Below are positions 311 to 8,567 of a stretch of DNA of 64,000 nucleotides, piece by piece. The translations under genes and the position numbers were made by a program. Under the pieces are notes generated by a model. That model saw only the letters and a list, made by a program, of their open reading frames with translations. It made no database searches and had not been told where the DNA came from. The stretch lies in NCBI GenBank assembly GCA_963924565.1, contig OZ004607.1, forward strand, positions 11,036,001 through 11,100,000, written 5' to 3'. This DNA comes from Ascidiella aspersa. Its lineage: Eukaryota. Position 1 is the stretch's first letter. Each line of letters starts with the position of its first letter.

Positions 311-3300
311 ATGGGTATGTCGAAAAACACCCGAAAGTTGTACTTGATACTGCTTTTAGCCGTTGCACTTGTCTTTTCCCACACTTTTTACTTAACCACC
401 AAGTATGAACGAGTAGTAAGCAAAGACCCAGTGATACGCCTAATGAAGACGACATCAACTATGAAACCCTTTAACTCGACGTGGACCTTAACAAGCGCAG
501 AAGTTCTATTAAAAAGGTCAAGGAAAGAATCCTGGATCAAATTGGATGACCCGGAAATCAAACTGTTGCGTAAGTGTATACTGAAATTTTAAATCGGGGT
601 GAATTTAAAATGCAGCGTACACATACGATTTTAAGACATAGGTCGCATTGTTATAACTTAACAATGTCACAACGCAGATTTAACATATATATGCAGCCTA
701 CTCTGTTTGAAGCTCTACATTGCGCTATTTTAGGATGTTGTTACAATTGCAAAGATAACAGGTTCTTAGACAGCCTACTTACTTTAATGATACCTATAAT
801 TAAAGTCTTGACTTTGTTTGATTAAATGTGTGGGATTATTTATTAATGCGGGATTCGAGCATATAATATTTTACTGGTTCATCCGTTGATCTAAAGTCGT
901 TTTTTTCTTCATGACGTCACTGGGCTACTTCTTTGACGTATTTTCCTGAAACAGAGACAGGTGCCACAATTTTTTCATACCTTTTGAAGGGTGTCACTAT
1001 ATAAAATCTATTGCCTACAGCCCTACAGGGCCCAAAACCTGACCTGTTATTTTATAAGAAAGCTAAGGTTGTTTTTACATATTTTACAAAATACTTTACA
1101 TTGATGAAATATTAACGTTGGCAAGTATAATTAAGCAGTTTATTCGTTAACCTTTGTTAACCTTTAGACTCAACGTCTCTTCACCCATTGGCACTTGACG
1201 AACCGTACGCCAGCAGAATCAAAGGAATAAGATCACGATGTGAAAAGCAAGGCGCAATTAACCCGCTTGTGGATCTTTCTGGGATGATTTATGACGATAA
1301 TCACAAAGTGGTCATGTGTGAAATACCTAAGGTAGGCTATTCCTTTAAAGTTGGTTGTAAAAACGAGTTAACTAAAAGTAATCTGTTAAAACTTTTCAGC
1401 TAAATCCTTTTCTTTATTTTTTTCGTGTAAGGTAATGTGTGTCTTTTGCTGGCTCTGTATCGAGTGTTGCCTGCAAATCTGCAACCTAGTTAAACAATTT
1501 ATGATGTTATTCAAATAACGTTCACAAATTAAAACAAATATATCAATTTTCAGCAAAAGTAAAACCAAAAACACACACAATTTAAGCAAATTTATTTGGT
1601 AGGGCAGCACAATGGCTATCTATTGGGTGCTCTTTTTAAATTGTTTTCTTCACCAAAAAGAAATTTTCACACTTTTTGAAAGATATATAGGCTCACACAT
1701 GCGTTTAAACTTTAAAACAACTGTGATCAAGCTGAGTAGTATAGTTGGTTGAGCGACAGTCTCGGTATAACGGCCCAGGTATGGAGGTAGTGGATGAGCA
1801 GGTAGCCTCGTTGTCCTGCCGGTCGCCATGGGTTTTCGAGCTCCACGCATTGTGGTGCATAAATTTGATGGCGGCCAGCAGGGCATCGTTGTTAAAGAAG
1901 GAGGCTTCTGCGTCGTCCACCTTCAAGACCTTGTGGCGGAACCTCAACGCCATTTGCCCCACTCCCTGACTATCATTGGTCATGATAGAGGCGTAATCGG
2001 TTGGAAAGAAGAACTTTCCAAGGAGAGTTTTACCTTTTCCCGATTCGCCGTGGAGCATGATATGTGGACTGTATTGGATTCCACCGGTTTCACTCCGCGC
2101 TTCCAGCCCAGCTTGAATGAGAACTAAGAGAAGCTCATCAGTGGTTAAGTTGAGGTCGTCAAATTGCACGTTTTTGGCCTCGTTGATGACATCGTAGACC
2201 GCCTGTTTTGCCTCAGCTACAGTCCATTTGGGAACCTGTTGAGCTGCCATTTTCTTTAGTGCTTTCTTGAGCTTGTTTTGCTTCTTCCCAAATTCCATTT
2301 GGTTGTAAGCTCTTTTTGCCAATTGTTCTGGGAACGAGAAGTTCGCCTGGAACAGCTTTTCCTTGTAAGCGTTCATGGAGGGTTTTGTGTCGAACCCTTT
2401 GGCTACTTCTTCGGCGATCTCTTGCCACTGCCCCCTTTTTGGGTAATCTTCTCTTTGCATCATCGCTTTTGCTTCTGCTGGTACATCTGTTTCTAGTGCA
2501 CCCTTGTACATATAGCTGACCCATGCAGCTTGGTCTTTGATTGCTGCTATGTATGTCAGGGTGATTCCTAGTTTCTTCAGCTCTTCGACCACCGTCTTCT
2601 TGCGCCATGCTGCTGCTTGCCGGCCCTCCACCTGACTCTTGGTGATGAATAGCCCATGTCGGTGGGGGCAATTGCTGTTCCCTTTCTCCAGAGGCCCCTG
2701 ATAGATTGTATAACGTGCCGTCTGTGTAATCCCACTTTTGCCAACGGTCGTGGTATAGGCCCATTTTCTGCCTCTGTACTTGTCGGACATCTCCTCTGCG
2801 CCGGTCGTATTCATTTTGATAGGTTATTAGCAAGTCTTCAACAAGCCTATTTATCCTAATGGTTTTCTGAAATGCAGTATCAAGTGGATTAGGTTTTCTA
2901 CAATTAGCTGCAATATTTCGTATCACTTCAATAGTCGGAAATATTTTATCATAATGAATTTATTTGCAACATTGAACGGTATATATACACATACGATGAC
3001 GTCATTGGTACTAGTACTGGTACTTTCATATTTTTGCTCGGTTGACACTAGTACGGGTCCCCAAAAGTGATGTCCAATTCCATGGTGTAGGGGATACATA
3101 CGAAATTGTCTGTCTTGTCAGCGTATCCTGTTGTAGTAGTTTTGTACTCCGCTGCTCTCAGCTCCTTCTTTATCGACTGATCGTACACATGTATTTGTGT
3201 CATCAGTGTTCTGCATGCTGGTGGCTGCGCCGTGCTGACCTCCCACCACGGTGTTTAGTAGTAGTGCGTGACTGTTGTATTGGTTGAGTGCGTTGCGTCA

Positions 3301-6300
3301 CTACAAATTGTATGCGTATCTGATTGGAGGAATTCCAGTGGTAGAGTTGTCATTGTCTCTTCCAGCTGGTATCTTGTGCAATTGCTGTACTCTTCAAGTA
3401 GAAATTCTGGGAATTGTCCTGAGTTGTCCTGAAATCCGTTGTCGAACTTTTGTTCGTAGTGGAATCCGTGACGTTGTGTAGCCACGTCCATCATAATTAT
3501 TGGCATATTCCTGGCATTATCGTCATGGCGGTTCATGGCTGCTGCTGGCCATAGATGTAGTTTCCAGTTTGAGTATTTCATCATAGTATATTTCGGAGCC
3601 AATGCTTTAACTCCTGCTAAGTTGGTTGCTGTTGTCATTCCGTTGCACGCGTATATCCTCCACCTTCTTCCGATGTTATTTCCCTTGTCTACTAGTGCGT
3701 TCATCTGTCTGCTTATTACGGCAGAGTGGACTATCATTAGTGATCCGGCGCTAGGCAGCAGAAGGCTCTCCGTAGTGTTACCGTCCACCCATGTTCTCCA
3801 CGTCTTGAATGTACCTCTGGGGTCGGTGACTGCCTTCTGGTAAAACCACCACATTTCCTTTGTCTGTGCCTCGACGTGTGTTGTCTGTTTGATTGGATGC
3901 ATCCTTGGTATTGGTAAAGTGGGTCCACCTCTTCCTGCCGCCCCAGATCCTCCTGCAGCAGTCTCCGACAGTCTTGCGCGCTTCGTCGGTGGTTCCCCTT
4001 CGCTGTAGTCTGACTGGGAATTGATGGACAAACCCTTCATCGCCTCATTCATTGGGCTTTCTACAGGGCTGTCTCCTGGTACGTTGGCGGGGGTTGCTGC
4101 GGTTGTTGTTGTGCTTCTTGTACTATTGTACTGTTGAATCTGATGCCAGTTCTTCTTTGCCTTCTTTGCAGGGGGCATATGAGGTAGTATCTTTCTCTTA
4201 GCTTCAAATATCCCACGTACGAGATTCCCGCTAAAGCCACCAATATCAGAGCTAGCTCGCAGTAAATCGCTGTCCGCGTTATTAAATTTGTAGTATGCTT
4301 CTTGACCAAGCTTTTCGTATTCTTGATCGTGTCGTTTACACGCTGCATCCAACGGTCCAGTGGTTTCTTGTCCTATATCGTTGAAAGGTCCACAGTGAGG
4401 ATGGCCTGGTATAGTAATTCCTCCTGTAGCTAACTTCTTACTCGACTTCCAGTTCATAATGAATCAAAACTTACCTTATTTGCATATTATATCCTTTTTC
4501 TACCTGGTACTAGTACTGACACTTTCATATTCTTGCTCAGCTGACACTTCCACCTTCCTCAGTACCAAAAGTAAGAATATGAAAGTACCAGTACTAGTAC
4601 TAACCTCATTTACATACTAGTTAGCAGTTCCTTTTACCCATTTAGCGAACTCGGTTCTGTCATAGTGGAAGCTGTGACGTCACAGTGAGCCTTTAGGTGG
4701 CGCGAAGCGCGCCCGAAGGGCCACGCGAAACTGTGACGTCACAGCGACACTATGACAGAACCGAGTTCGTTAAATGGGTGTCTTTGGAGGAAAATTCATT
4801 TTTATTAAAAAGATGAAATATGGAAAAGAGGACATAGCCATACACTCAAGATTAGAATACTATGCAAAATTGTTGAAGTCCATATTTCACCAAAACTGTA
4901 ATTTTGCCCCTGGGTTCACTAAAGTTGACATATTTGTTACAGGCGGCTTGTACCTCATGGAAAGAGCTGATGTGGAACTTGCTGGGATACAACACATATC
5001 CAGACCAATTCGATAAAGCCAAACTTTTACTTTCGCTCGGCTACCTTCCGACATTAGACAGGTGAAAAGCATTAAACACCTTTTTAACTCTAAGGTATCC
5101 AAAAAAAAATGGTATCCGATTTGTTTATTGCTATTTTATCGATTTAGTTCCATAAAAACATCCTAAATTTAATCATTGTACAATTTTTTTGGTATTACAA
5201 ACAGGGTTGTGTAGTTTAGGCCGGATACAGGATTCGAAACTTGAGTAAGAGTGGTCGAGTCCCGAGTCCGACGTGTTCAGTTCTGAACCGAATAAGGCCC
5301 CAGACGTTCCTCACATTACACCTGACACGCTTAAAAGTCGCTTATAGACAAACGACAACTGCCCTTTACTATCATGAGTGTAGAAGTACCCGAGTGCAGA
5401 AATATTATCCTGCTTAAAACCTTGGTGAATTTGTCACTTAAAATATCGCCGCTGCTGTAACAGTGATCATTACAAACAGTCGCTAATTTAAACGGCCTGT
5501 TAATGCGCCTTTCTTTTGCGACATTAAATTATATTAGTATTTCTTGTAATGTTGTATACTGACTTAGTGCACTATTATCACTGTTTTTAAATGATCGGTT
5601 GACTTTATTTTACGTAGCAAAATGATTTACTAGATTTAGGTTAAATAAAAGAATGACTTGACCATTGTAAAAGCTATAAATTTTTTTTTTAATTTTTAGA
5701 CATGCCCCATTGGTCAGCATTATGTTTAGTGCGTGTATTTTGCTTTAAAAAATCATTCTCGATATTGAAAAAATCAGTGAATCAACAGTTTAAAATTTAT
5801 TTTTTAATGCAAATTCTATAAATTGGAGATGACTTGCAATCACTAGGCTACTTGGACAGTGACTTTACTTGGCTTGTCAGCAGATAACTTGACAGGGGAT
5901 TTGATTTTTAAGAACTACTCTTCATGGAAGTTACTTTTGTAAAATACTTGACTTGGCCTTTACTCCTTTAGCAACACCCCTGCCTCTTGTCAGGTTAAAT
6001 CGTGAGGAGGCGATTTGGCGTCTTGCGACTTACACCAAGTTCTTGGTGAAACGACATCCTCTGGAACGACTGGTGTCGGCGCACAGCGACAAGTTTACCA
6101 GCCGGTCGCCTGTGTCCGGTTTTCGGCTGCGAGCCGGGAGGCGGATCGCCGTTGAACAGGCCGACGCCTACATGCACTCGGTCGGCTTCAACAAGACAGG
6201 GTAAATGTCAGTGTTGTTGTAAGCATATATAAACTGTTGCCAGCAGCCATAGTAATACAAATCAAAAAACAGCTCCTCTGGTTTTAATTGTAGACCAACG

Positions 6301-8567
6301 TTTCGGCAACCTATTCAAGCCGCCTTCGCCAGGGTGAATGACACTAAACACTTGTACAATAAACGGAAAACACAAGAAGGATAAAAAGCAGAAAAGAACG
6401 CGAGCAACGAAACGATAAGAAAACAATTAGTGATAACGTTTAGTCCTTCAGCAGGTGCTTATAGCATGCCGAGAACATCACGTCTGGTTTGACGTTCATG
6501 GTGTTACCCTTCTTATGGATGTTCCACGAAGGCGGCTTGAATAGGTTGCCGAAACGGTGGTCAAGAATTAAAATTACCAGAGGAGCTGTTTTTTGATTTG
6601 TTGTAGGCATGTCAAAGTGAAACGGAATTAGTCCAAGCTAAAACGTTTTCCATGTGCCAAGTCGAACCCACAGTAGTCTATGGCCTCTGATATTTATGTG
6701 AAGCAAAGTTATCCGAGTTGTGTGCTATTGTAGTCAAGTTTATTTTCTGTTCGAATCGAATTTAAACCTTAAAGATTCATGGACCACTTATTGTAATTCA
6801 AATTGCGTCGGTACACTGAAGTTGGTTGGTTCAAGGAGACTGTTCTAAAGTTCTAAATAAAATACAAAGTCGTTGTATGGTGGCCAGCGTGACTTCTGGA
6901 GTCAATAGTAATCTTCAGTAAATACACAATCATGAACAAGTGTTTCGCCAAAATACTAGATTCCTACTTTATACGGTGTCGGCAAAATTTGTAGCGCACA
7001 TGCATTTCTATATACAGATAACTCAGGTCTCAGTCAAGGTTTAGGAGTCCACAGTTAAAGAAAAATTGTTGCTCATGTTTAGAACAACCAATATAGCATC
7101 GGTTGAGCAAGACCCGGTTTTTCAGCAATTGTCATCGTCAGAACAGGAAGAGGTCCGTGAGTACGTTTCTAGACTCAACAATGGAGAAATAAGCTTTGTT
7201 CAATTGACAGAGTAAGTTCTACTTTAAAGCGCATGTTCGACCGACCAACTGGGGACTTGTCATTTGTTTTTGCTTTTAATTGCTTTTTTATGCCAAAGGT
7301 TCTTATTCACGGAAGCACTATATATTTATTTCGCGGAACACTATAAAGGAATTTATTTTAAAAGTAGTTTTAATATTCCAGCACACTAAAATAACATTTA
7401 AAAGTTCATATAATTTTTTTTTTATATTACGGAAAACATGACGTTTTAGTGAACGGAATATATAGTTTTTTATTGGGTTAATTTGGAAAAAAAGTTTCAT
7501 TACTTTTTAGTTAAATTTGATATCTGGTAATTAAGTAATATAACTTTCAGTTTAATTTTTATAGCTTTGCATTGCAGTCCGTTTTAATAAACCTTTTCTA
7601 AAAATTTTGCTGTTCATAAATAAATAAAATTTGGGTGTTTAGCCATGTTGTTAAGTCTATAGATTAATTTTATAATTAATGTTTAATAATCCGTTAATAT
7701 AGCTTTCAGTTGAGTGTCTATAGCAGTGCTTCTTAAACATTTTTAGGTCTGTTCACCCCTAGCATCTATCTCCAGATTTCATTCACCCTTGTCTCATGAT
7801 ATGATAAAACTATCTCGTTCTATATAACAGCACAAAATGACTTCTACCCAATCTAAGTTTTATCAACTCAAGCTAAGTTTTACCATTGCAAATCTACAAT
7901 TTCTCGAGTCCAGAAATATAAAGCTACAAAAAAAAGCACAAAACACAGTCACCAAATCTTTGTACTTATACACCCAGTGCAAAACAACTTCACCATTACA
8001 ATAAGCAAAAAAATACCAAAAAACAATAGTTTTGTAGTCGATTTTCTGCAGAGCTATCATCCATTTCTGACGGTTCACCCTTATTCACCCCTTTTGGTTG
8101 GTTCACTCCTGCAAAAATTGTATTCACCCTGGGTTGAACCATTCACCTGTTTAAAAAACGCTGGTCTATAGTATTGCATTGCGGTCCGTTTTAATTAACC
8201 TGTTCTAAAATTCTTCTGTTCATAAATAAATCAAACTCGGGTGTTTAGTCATGTTGTCAAGTCAAGTGAACGGGGTCTGGCAAAGTTGGACATCCACTGG
8301 CGCCCACAAACAACACTCTGCAATCCTTGCGCCATCAACTACGACTACGTTATCGACTTTGATCACCTGACTCGGGATTCGAACCGCCTACTCGACTACT
8401 TGCAGGGCGACAAGCCAAACGAGTGGCGGCTCAGTCTAAAAGAAAAGAACGCAACCATAAAACAAACTGCCGTGGACAGCGCCTTTGCTTCGATCAGCGA
8501 CCAAACTATACGAAAACTAAGGGAAGTTTACCAGAAAGATTTTTGCGTTTTGGGATACGATTGGTAG
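311..8567 (+). CDS. Carbohydrate sulfotransferase (CHST8-14/HNK-1ST-like, Sulfotransfer_2 family), type II Golgi membrane protein, 6 exons
   Basis: Exons 311-569, 1168-1331, 4943-5061, 5994-6200, 7083-7211, 8249-8567 join in frame with GT-AG junctions. N-terminal TM anchor LYLILLLAVALVFSHTFYL; 5'-PSB motif CEIPK|AACTSWK split by intron 2; 3'-PB motif RHPLERLVSAH; family motif DIHWRPQTTLCNPCAINYDY; C-terminal YQKDFCVLGY. Confidence 0.9.
1705..2814 (-). CDS. Rep/NS1-like protein: HUH rolling-circle endonuclease + SF3 helicase, C-terminus probably damaged
   Basis: Motif I-like RKWAYTT (aa 16-22), motif II YQGPLEKGNSNCPHRHG, motif III WVSYMYKG (Y101), Walker A HGESGKGKT (aa 255-263), Walker B KVDDA (aa 298-302). 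No clear motif C. ATG context caaaATGa. Confidence 0.88.
   Translation of the reverse strand: MNTTGAEEMSDKYRGRKWAYTTTVGKSGITQTARYTIYQGPLEKGNSNCPHRHGLFITKSQVEGRQAAAWRKKTVVEELKKLGITLTYIAAIKDQAAWVSYMYKGALETDVPAEAKAMMQREDYPKRGQWQEIAEEVAKGFDTKPSMNAYKEKLFQANFSFPEQLAKRAYNQMEFGKKQNKLKKALKKMAAQQVPKWTVAEAKQAVYDVINEAKNVQFDDLNLTTDELLLVLIQAGLEARSETGGIQYSPHIMLHGESGKGKTLLGKFFFPTDYASIMTNDSQGVGQMALRFRHKVLKVDDAEASFFNNDALLAAIKFMHHNAWSSKTHGDRQDNEATCSSTTSIPGPLYRDCRSTNYTTQLDHSCFKV
2213..2926 (-). CDS. NS2-like accessory protein overlapping the 5' half of Rep in another frame
   Basis: 237-codon open frame overlapping the Rep N-terminal half, the arrangement seen for densovirus NS2. GTG start as annotated; the promoter-proximal ATG at 2952 is one base out of frame. 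No recognisable motif. Confidence 0.55.
   Translation of the reverse strand: MIRNIAANCRKPNPLDTAFQKTIRINRLVEDLLITYQNEYDRRRGDVRQVQRQKMGLYHDRWQKWDYTDGTLYNLSGASGEREQQLPPPTWAIHHQESGGGPASSSMAQEDGGRRAEETRNHPDIHSSNQRPSCMGQLYVQGCTRNRCTSRSKSDDAKRRLPKKGAVARDRRRSSQRVRHKTLHERLQGKAVPGELLVPRTIGKKSLQPNGIWEEAKQAQESTKENGSSTGSQMDCS
2950..3049 (-). promoter_or_regulatory. Putative viral Rep/NS promoter
   Basis: 44-bp block 3006-3049 shared with the VP promoter, CRE TGACGTCA 2997-3004, TATATATA 2980-2987, Inr-like TCATT 2953-2957 directly followed by ATG. AATAAA at 2959-2964 (- strand) could be the VP polyA signal. Confidence 0.65.
3255..4457 (-). CDS. Parvovirus-like VP1 capsid protein with N-terminal phospholipase A2 domain; frame continues past one stop to 3048
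   Basis: vPLA2 Ca-loop TIPGHPHCGPFN, catalytic helix LDAACKRHDQEY and downstream YYKFNNADSDL; basic NLS-like PPAKKAKK and PPTKRAR; Gly-rich AAGGSGAAGRGG before the capsid core. Confidence 0.9.
   Translation of the reverse strand: MNWKSSKKLATGGITIPGHPHCGPFNDIGQETTGPLDAACKRHDQEYEKLGQEAYYKFNNADSDLLRASSDIGGFSGNLVRGIFEAKRKILPHMPPAKKAKKNWHQIQQYNSTRSTTTTAATPANVPGDSPVESPMNEAMKGLSINSQSDYSEGEPPTKRARLSETAAGGSGAAGRGGPTLPIPRMHPIKQTTHVEAQTKEMWWFYQKAVTDPRGTFKTWRTWVDGNTTESLLLPSAGSLMIVHSAVISRQMNALVDKGNNIGRRWRIYACNGMTTATNLAGVKALAPKYTMMKYSNWKLHLWPAAAMNRHDDNARNMPIIMMDVATQRHGFHYEQKFDNGFQDNSGQFPEFLLEEYSNCTRYQLEETMTTLPLEFLQSDTHTICSDATHSTNTTVTHYY
4061..4348 (-). CDS. Putative small membrane protein overprinted (+1 frame) on the VP1-unique PLA2 region
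   Basis: ATG-initiated 95-aa ORF with one hydrophobic helix AIYCELALILVALAGISYVGYL followed by basic KLRER; position matches X/ARF1/MAAP-type overlapping ORFs of parvoviruses. Confidence 0.5.
   Translation of the reverse strand: MQRVNDTIKNTKSLVKKHTTNLITRTAIYCELALILVALAGISYVGYLKLRERYYLICPLQRRQRRTGIRFNSTIVQEAQQQPQQPPPTYQETAL
4455..4548 (-). promoter_or_regulatory. Putative viral VP promoter
   Basis: 44-bp block 4505-4548 (39/44 identical to 3006-3049), ATATAAT about 30 nt upstream of Inr-like TCATT (4458-4462), which abuts the VP ATG. Confidence 0.65.
4636..4779. repeat. Y-shaped terminal hairpin (parvovirus-type telomere/origin)
   Basis: 32-bp stem 4636-4667/4748-4779 (one G-T), GAA/GA bubble, perfect 16-bp stem 4671-4686/4730-4745, internal loop, GTG/CAC neck, two ears GCGC-GAA-GCGC (4700-4710) and GCCC-GAA-GGGC (4711-4721). 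Confidence 0.92.
6257..6601 (-). mobile_element. Penelope-like retroelement remnant with inverted terminal repeats
   Basis: ~72-bp inverted arms 6257-6328/6527-6601. Enclosed - strand ORF tail WNIHKKGNTMNVKPDVMFSACYKHLLKD* (6440-6526) resembles the PLE GIY-YIG C-terminus. Arms contain a hammerhead-like core CTGGCGAAGGC...GCCGAAACGTTGGTC. Confidence 0.7.
7724..8163. mobile_element. hAT-type MITE
   Basis: 8-bp TSD GTCTATAG on both sides; imperfect TIR CAGTGCTTCTTAAAC / GTTTAAAAAACGCTG. Confidence 0.85.

Follow-up and report, generated by a model that had tools for sequence, protein, structure and literature searches.

A truncated replication gene in an intron-borne copy of a small DNA virus with its capsid gene upstream of Rep

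The stretch of DNA that was analysed, hereafter the window, is 64,000 nucleotides long and carries an integrated small DNA virus at 1798–4779 on the minus strand (2,982 bases). The element sits in a host intron on a 41-Mb contig and has a GC content of 46.6%, compared to 33.5% for the adjoining intron. In coding order, it comprises a 144-nt branched hairpin, a capsid gene with a PLA2 domain, an overlapping small frame and a truncated replication gene (Rep), which lies downstream of the capsid gene on the same strand. The features are as follows:

~1170–1331, 4943–5061 and 5994–6200, plus strand: exons of a putative sulfotransferase gene, on the opposite strand to the element
1332–4942, plus strand: host intron carrying the viral element, bounded by open frames with GT/AG borders
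1705–1797, minus strand: non-viral read-through that makes up the final 30 codons and the stop codon of the Rep open reading frame (ORF), with no paralogue match
1798–2814, minus strand: Rep, with an HUH nuclease (residues ~14–122), a helical region (~123–245) and an SF3 helicase (~246–339)
2213–2959, minus strand: overlapping small frame in an NS2-like position, starting 5' of Rep and overlapping its start
3048–4457, minus strand: capsid (VP) gene with an N-terminal PLA2 domain (PF08398, E = 2.9e-14)
4458–4635, minus strand: upstream region with a ~90-nt palindrome (4507–4600), octamer-like motifs and a donor-like AAG/GTAAG at 4477
4636–4779, no strand: branched GC-rich palindrome of 144 nt, the capsid-side end of the element

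Among the three sulfotransferase exons scanned, only the third matches PF03567 (E = 1.3e-7), and the three would join into a single gene. The next intron (6257–6601) holds nested inverted repeats (26 nt, 100%; 47 nt, 94%) that are typical of MITEs, and no ORF of at least 170 aa was found between 7000 and 64000 of the window.

The ORF at 1705–2814 (minus strand, 369 aa) had been annotated in a first pass, made from the letters alone, as a Rep with rolling-circle motifs I to III. All the quoted peptides are found in its translation, and both the frame and the three motifs are real; however, the ORF is not the whole gene, as Rep runs only to 1798 and the last 30 residues are read-through into non-viral sequence. 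No paralogue match begins before base 1794, paralogues diverge from codon 340 onward, and all three paralogues checked run into motif C, where the window enters unrelated sequence instead. The helicase portion thus retains Walker A, B and B' and is cut just before motif C. The junction at 1798 is spanned by contigs from samples X1 and X2, and also from X4 at a depth below 5, which places the break in host DNA; an assembly artefact at the truncation is ruled out by the X1 and X2 contigs, of which X1 may be the source of the assembly. Much of what had been described as the atypical end of the helicase is therefore the break itself. The window copy is a fossil, incapable of encoding a working helicase. 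Breaks within one or two codons of the same point, likewise just before motif C, occur at ~5229 and 6691 of L056, in two tandem units on a different contig, making this a recurrent break point.

Further analysis of the motifs used a 29-row family alignment, in which the denominators are the rows with a residue at the position. Motif I is well kept (W18 in 24/26 and T21 in 22/26 rows), as is motif III (Y101 in 26/28, K104 in 27/28). In motif II, first read as H-R-H, the second histidine holds (H53, 25/27) but the first does so in only 13/27 (H51). The proposed likeness of KRGQWQEIAE to the GxRxDW motif falls away, with R127 in 2/27 and G128 in 4/27 rows. By contrast, the NDSQGVGQ segment, singled out as distinctive, is a true family signature (NDSxGVG): D281 is present in 29/29 rows, and G284 and V285 in 28/28, giving a nearly invariant D-x-x-GVG that aligns at the position of parvoviral NFPFND and CRESS WWDGY. 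Relatives possess, beyond the break of the window copy, an RR[FM] arginine finger (24 of the 29 rows), and their Rep has an acidic tail of ~200 aa. The spacer from the motif III tyrosine to the Walker A lysine measures 161 aa, with a family median of 159 and a range of 151–178 (21/22). It is indeed long for CRESS Reps (77–109 in 40/52), as claimed, but near-normal for parvoviruses (175–195 in 13 of 14 scorable Parvovirinae NS1, from 19 in total). It falls between the two groups and is parvovirus- or E1-like instead of unusual.

The 144-nt palindrome has arms (4636–4667 and 4748–4779) that are 97% complementary and a DNA fold of −64.3 kcal/mol; it is likely the terminal hairpin and origin. Four of 20 own-genome stretches retain a match to it beside the capsid gene. 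The ~90-nt palindrome recurs in the window at 4507–4600 and 3005–3049; it flanks VP on both sides and occurs again 3' of Rep. It is also present in L052, L053, L054, L058, L059, L060 and L062, its repeat units co-varying by variant. It could serve Rep binding or transcription, its copies changing in concert, and a regulatory role of 4458–4635 would fit its motifs. In the window copy, VP has a premature stop at 3255–3257 and the frame runs on to 3048; paralogues have open VP frames of 478–480 codons. The model of the VP shell, made from a paralogue and of low confidence (pLDDT 47.8), matches single jelly-roll capsids, best those of circoviruses (Z = 8.2), with parvoviruses and PmMDV at about 6.2. 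A fold search of BFVD with VP returned CRESS and parvo-like hybrid capsids, the hybrids at ranks 9 and 11, and the VP profile had no match among PDB sequences, which include the PmMDV capsid.

The overlapping small frame has 248 codons without a stop and shares 41–62% identity with the same frame in paralogues; it has no Pfam match, and the window copy lacks the start codon present in other copies. The donor-like AAG/GTAAG at 4477 lies immediately 5' of the capsid start codon. A branch point plus TTTCAG acceptor (2895–2867), ~55 nt 5' of the Rep start, is kept across copies, and splicing between the two would excise the whole capsid gene; the acceptor lies inside a coding frame, so its conservation may be protein-driven. 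The conserved putative donor and acceptor tentatively suggest a single promoter, with VP expressed from unspliced and the non-structural frames from spliced transcripts.

The same genome contains many divergent copies of the virus. At least 47 DNA matches and at least 60 protein matches were found, numbers that are lower bounds and not copy numbers, and a Parvo_NS1 search of the genome returned 0 matches compared to 60 for Rep itself. The copies are ~70% identical and most are broken. Of 20 own-genome stretches, 10 have capsid sequence 5' of Rep on the same strand and the other 10 lack one gene. Downstream of Rep, 8 of 15 segments share an end point ~280 nt past the stop, without a GC-rich hairpin, and no own-genome copy has a hairpin after Rep. 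The two ends of the element are different sequences, and no end-to-end join of them was found. Between copies, Rep has a dN of 0.12–0.19 with saturated dS (5/5 pairs), and VP a dN of 0.18–0.29 with a dS of 1.6–1.9 (3/3 pairs); low dN with saturated or high dS in all eight pairs indicates that the copies are independent viral variants under purifying selection. Clusters of copies lie on C3 (5.08–5.19 and 10.79–10.86 Mb) and C5 (6.9–7.9, 29.77–29.79 and 32.6–33.08 Mb) of genome G000. Their neighbors are presumably transposon-like, and these loci are possibly piRNA-cluster-like.

Database searches revealed 7 Rep relatives by a word-based search and 57 by a full HMMER scan of 1.84 billion representatives, at least two of the 57 being spurious (P0031 and P0053, repeat-protein artefacts). 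None of the 20 clusters looked up has a name. For 29 members, 25 of 28 Pfam families were listed and neither Parvo_NS1 nor Viral_Rep is one of them; five further proteins match neither. A distant member (P0049, 22% identity) is deposited at NCBI without a name, so some of the clade may be in public databases already. Scans of IMG/VR with three Rep queries gave no relative, tblastn against PLSDB gave no match, and PDB sequence searches with Rep, its profile and the VP profile returned Walker A noise or nothing. In the Atlas, a search with P0049 gave only scores below 0.9, and in feature space another member, P0001, lies near CRESS/plasmid clusters (0.95) and a Parvo_NS1 cluster (0.94).

The same organization is seen in 23 metagenome loci, a redundant set of some two lineages whose flanks look host-like and transposon-like. 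VP lies upstream of Rep in 20 of the 23, as detected by a VP profile that had three of these loci in it; truncation or rearrangement affects the remaining three. Independently, tblastn with the own-genome VP found PLA2 upstream of Rep in 8/23. The loci carry a ~275-nt hairpin 3' of Rep; in L077 and L082 it is followed by pieces of Rep in inverted orientation, the pattern that hairpin replication would leave. A second lineage (L071–L073) is likewise capsid-first, its capsid having no PLA2 match. The genome that carries the window copy has a cellulose-synthase-like exon (L094, 1186–2076), matching bacterial BcsA structures with an E-value of 2e-22, which served as a host marker; CesA is not known from animals other than tunicates, and a tunicate host is likely. 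The virus is endogenous in at least two animal hosts, one of them likely a tunicate. Parvovirus-related sequences were reported from 118 species, one tunicate among them (PMC5013282), a survey that may bear on these copies.

We predicted the Rep structure by AlphaFold (pLDDT 83.7, pTM 0.44), and the spacer is helical in the model. Like the corresponding parts of papillomavirus E1 and AAV Rep, it is predicted to comprise oligomerisation and cap domains. A structural similarity search aligned residues 123–338 with the oligomerisation and helicase domains of BPV E1 (Z = 8.0, RMSD of 8.2 over 175 aligned residues), and residues 197–338 with AAV2 Rep40 (Z = 7.1, RMSD of 3.3 over 120 residues) and with SV40 LT. 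The nuclease domain (residues 14–122) is most similar to pMV158 RepB (Z = 7.5, RMSD of 2.9 over 93 residues), followed by the nanovirus nuclease (Z = 6.6) and circovirus nucleases (Z = 6.0–6.4). The best Z-scores are all middling (6–8) and tied within about 1, so these groups are not separated by structure. Among the best 50 structural matches, neither a nuclease domain from a parvovirus nor a helicase structure from a CRESS virus appears, an absence that is not an exclusion. Foldseek places hamaparvoviral NS1 models (E = 2e-5 and weaker, 10–12% identity) level with CRESS Reps among the top rows; none of the best 50 Rep fold matches is named as a parvo-like hybrid, many rows being unnamed.

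For placement by sequence, references were picked from IMG/VR by motif pattern and thinned at 60% identity, giving 19 Parvovirinae, 6 densoviruses, 52 CRESS and 45 E1 sequences, whose group labels follow their motifs; Hama-, Penbre-, Hepan- and Metallovirinae, Oomyviridae and plasmid pCRESS sequences lie outside these sets. In HHalign comparisons, the nuclease profile matches CRESS with a probability of 92.6% (E = 4.7e-7), compared to 0.5% for Parvovirinae, 0.07% for densoviruses and below 2% for the others. The helicase profile gives 96.9% for CRESS (score 70), 81.5% for Parvovirinae (45), 64% for E1 (39) and 1.6% for densoviruses (22). With CRESS subsampled to 19 or 6 rows, it still ranks first in 10/10 trials, the nuclease probability falling to 36–86% with 6 rows. 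The earlier view that the nuclease is more CRESS-like than parvoviral is thus borne out, with controls for depth. The Parvovirinae helicase profile, in turn, scores higher with densoviruses (115), E1 (81) and CRESS (72), indicating that the Rep family is far from everything. The homology to CRESS Reps is distant (family HMM, best E = 6.8e-7; 11/52 at E < 0.01). A full-length NS1 match of the ordinary densovirus kind was looked for and is absent: the best phmmer E-values are 12 against the 6 densovirus and 4.5 against the 19 Parvovirinae references.

A FastTree helicase tree (94 rows, 119 columns; 30 of 52 CRESS and 12 of 45 E1 used) was calculated with four D5-like proteins as outgroup, fetched by the pattern YGPSNTGKS, which returned no hamaparvoviruses. 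The family forms one clade on a long branch (SH 0.97). Its sister group is CRESS (0.85), with Parvovirinae and densoviruses placed apart from it (0.83), and its mean distances to CRESS (6.3) and Parvovirinae (6.5) are close. Rep thus appears nearer to the circular CRESS viruses than to Parvovirinae and densoviruses, the parvoviruses included here. The level Foldseek ranking of hamaparvoviral NS1 and the nearly equal Atlas scores given above speak against this placement. The single clade, together with the lack of any named or Pfam-annotated relative in the searches above, upholds the original call of a distinct Rep clade.

Altogether, we consider it probable that the element represents an unclassified lineage of linear ~4 kb ssDNA viruses of marine invertebrates, predicted to replicate by rolling hairpin and represented by integrated and metagenome loci only, no free virus genome, virion or RNA having been seen. 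Novelty at the family level is likely, with the Reps of Hama-, Penbre-, Hepan- and Metallovirinae and Oomyviridae outside the direct comparison. Our literature search, from which most subscription papers and ICTV proposals fell outside, found no description of a capsid-first ssDNA lineage with hairpins. By analogy with parvoviruses and HUH biology, host polymerase would extend from the terminal hairpin, and Rep would bind the repeated palindromes and nick with Tyr101, the metal being held by the motif II histidine. Rep may oligomerise via its helical region, with the SF3 ring unwinding the DNA, and the PLA2 of the jelly-roll capsid would let the virus leave the endosome. Expression of Rep and the overlapping frame would depend either on removal of the capsid gene by splicing or on a second promoter. 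We infer that the virus works like a parvovirus, although its gene order is unlike and its Rep falls outside the two subfamilies compared. As a tentative step further, possible though short of probable, we propose a new animal ssDNA family that became linear independently of parvoviruses and oomyviruses, combining a CRESS/plasmid-type nuclease with an E1/AAV-type oligomerisation-helicase module in a capsid-first genome, whose fossils would survive in a tunicate and in one or more further animals.

The lineage might instead be a highly divergent branch of Parvoviridae with swapped gene order, possibly related to a subfamily of which few members are sampled (Metallovirinae, for example), its CRESS likeness arising from a compact, slow-changing nuclease and long-branch effects. 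Terminal hairpins, a VP with PLA2, an HUH-SF3 Rep with a ~160-aa spacer and an NS2-like overlap would all fit, as would the alignment of the helical cap with AAV2 Rep40 and the hamaparvoviral NS1 among the top Foldseek rows. There is also a precedent in PmMDV, which is classified in the family although its proteins are reported to lack significant similarity to other parvoviruses, and which is credited with a “unique genome organization” (PMC11357303). However, papillomavirus E1 scores higher with the Parvovirinae helicase profile (81) than the present family does (42), Parvo_NS1 is missing from the 25 Pfam families (of 28) listed for 29 members, and all parvoviruses have NS on the left and VP on the right, as stated in the same review (PMC11357303). 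We regard this explanation as unlikely. A circular CRESS-type virus, in which capsid-before-Rep merely reflects where the circle was opened, namely at a large stem-loop, is improbable. It would account for the CRESS-like nuclease, the RRF arginine finger, the circovirus-like VP model, the VP pieces after Rep in 4 of 23 metagenome loci and the NANTATTAC-like motifs near the Rep-side end. Against it, the two ends differ in sequence and no copy joins them, the branched hairpins of 144–275 nt with inverted fragments beyond fit linear genomes, and the VP pieces begin within the gene. The nonamer-like motifs sit in stems and arise in ~14% of shuffles, and a nonamer origin finds no support above the chance rate. 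A reading in which the copies record no infections but are now a rolling-circle transposon resident in the host, or an antiviral element that the host has co-opted, would explain the numerous matches clustered on C3 and C5 and the Rep-side end point common to 8 segments, yet is very hard to reconcile with copies that are ~70% identical, saturated at synonymous sites, mostly broken and still in possession of a PLA2 capsid.

Read as an unclassified linear lineage, these viruses offer a direct test of the number of times that linear rolling-hairpin genomes have arisen, and of the validity of gene order as a character for defining families. They unite a CRESS-like nuclease with a helical spacer of parvovirus length, hairpins and reversed gene order, and intermediates between CRESS viruses and parvoviruses are scarce; parvoviruses were proposed to derive from circular CRESS viruses (PMC6668415). 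Were the new family real, it would represent an intermediate of living architecture between circular CRESS Reps and the parvoviral and papillomaviral initiators. The germ-line copies tie host-less metagenomic proteins to animals, an invertebrate chordate likely among them. The group as a whole escapes standard Pfam screens.

Compared to known systems, the plasmid Reps of pE194/pMV158 RepB and pCRESS type give the best nuclease structure match and the top feature-space neighbors of P0001; the element here differs in having a capsid and sitting in an animal genome, and PLSDB holds no match. The megaparvovirus-like SwaBA lineage shares a PLA2 ORF upstream of NS1 and is partly known from EVEs, whereas its capsid lies downstream of NS1 without PLA2, its genome is ~6.4 kb and it falls near Hamavirinae (PMC13426907). 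CRESS Reps (Circoviridae, Nanoviridae and unclassified) resemble the present Rep in their compact nuclease, WxFT-type motif I, YxxK motif III and RRF arginine finger, and give the best profile scores for both Rep domains, so that the Cressdnaviricota trait of a Rep homologous to CRESS Reps is found, distantly. They differ in that the spacer here is twice as long, motif II reads (H)xHG rather than HxQG, and the genome has large hairpins and a PLA2 capsid of ~480 aa. Oomyviridae (Lineavirales, “parvo-like hybrid viruses”) are likewise linear ssDNA viruses with a CRESS-related, circovirus-like Rep and a PLA2 capsid (PMC13426907, PMC12451638); they are set apart by description, with stramenopile hosts likely there (PMC12451638) and an animal germ line here. 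Parvoviridae comprise six subfamilies classified by SF3 (PMC13426907), and our comparison by sequence covers Parvovirinae and Densovirinae, the other four lying outside it. They differ from the present element in the nuclease profile, which finds no match, in the absence of Parvo_NS1 here, in the Walker B region (DD with the DxxGVG segment here, NFPFND/EE there) and in their NS-left, VP-right or ambisense order, where VP precedes Rep on one strand here. Both share an HUH nuclease plus SF3 helicase, seen here in motifs and fold with motif C only in relatives; terminal hairpins, observed here on the capsid side in the window and 4 of 20 stretches and on the Rep side only in metagenome loci; a long helical spacer; an overlapping small NS frame; a capsid with N-terminal PLA2 and a jelly roll, the latter predicted here by the low-confidence model; and endogenous copies in invertebrates.
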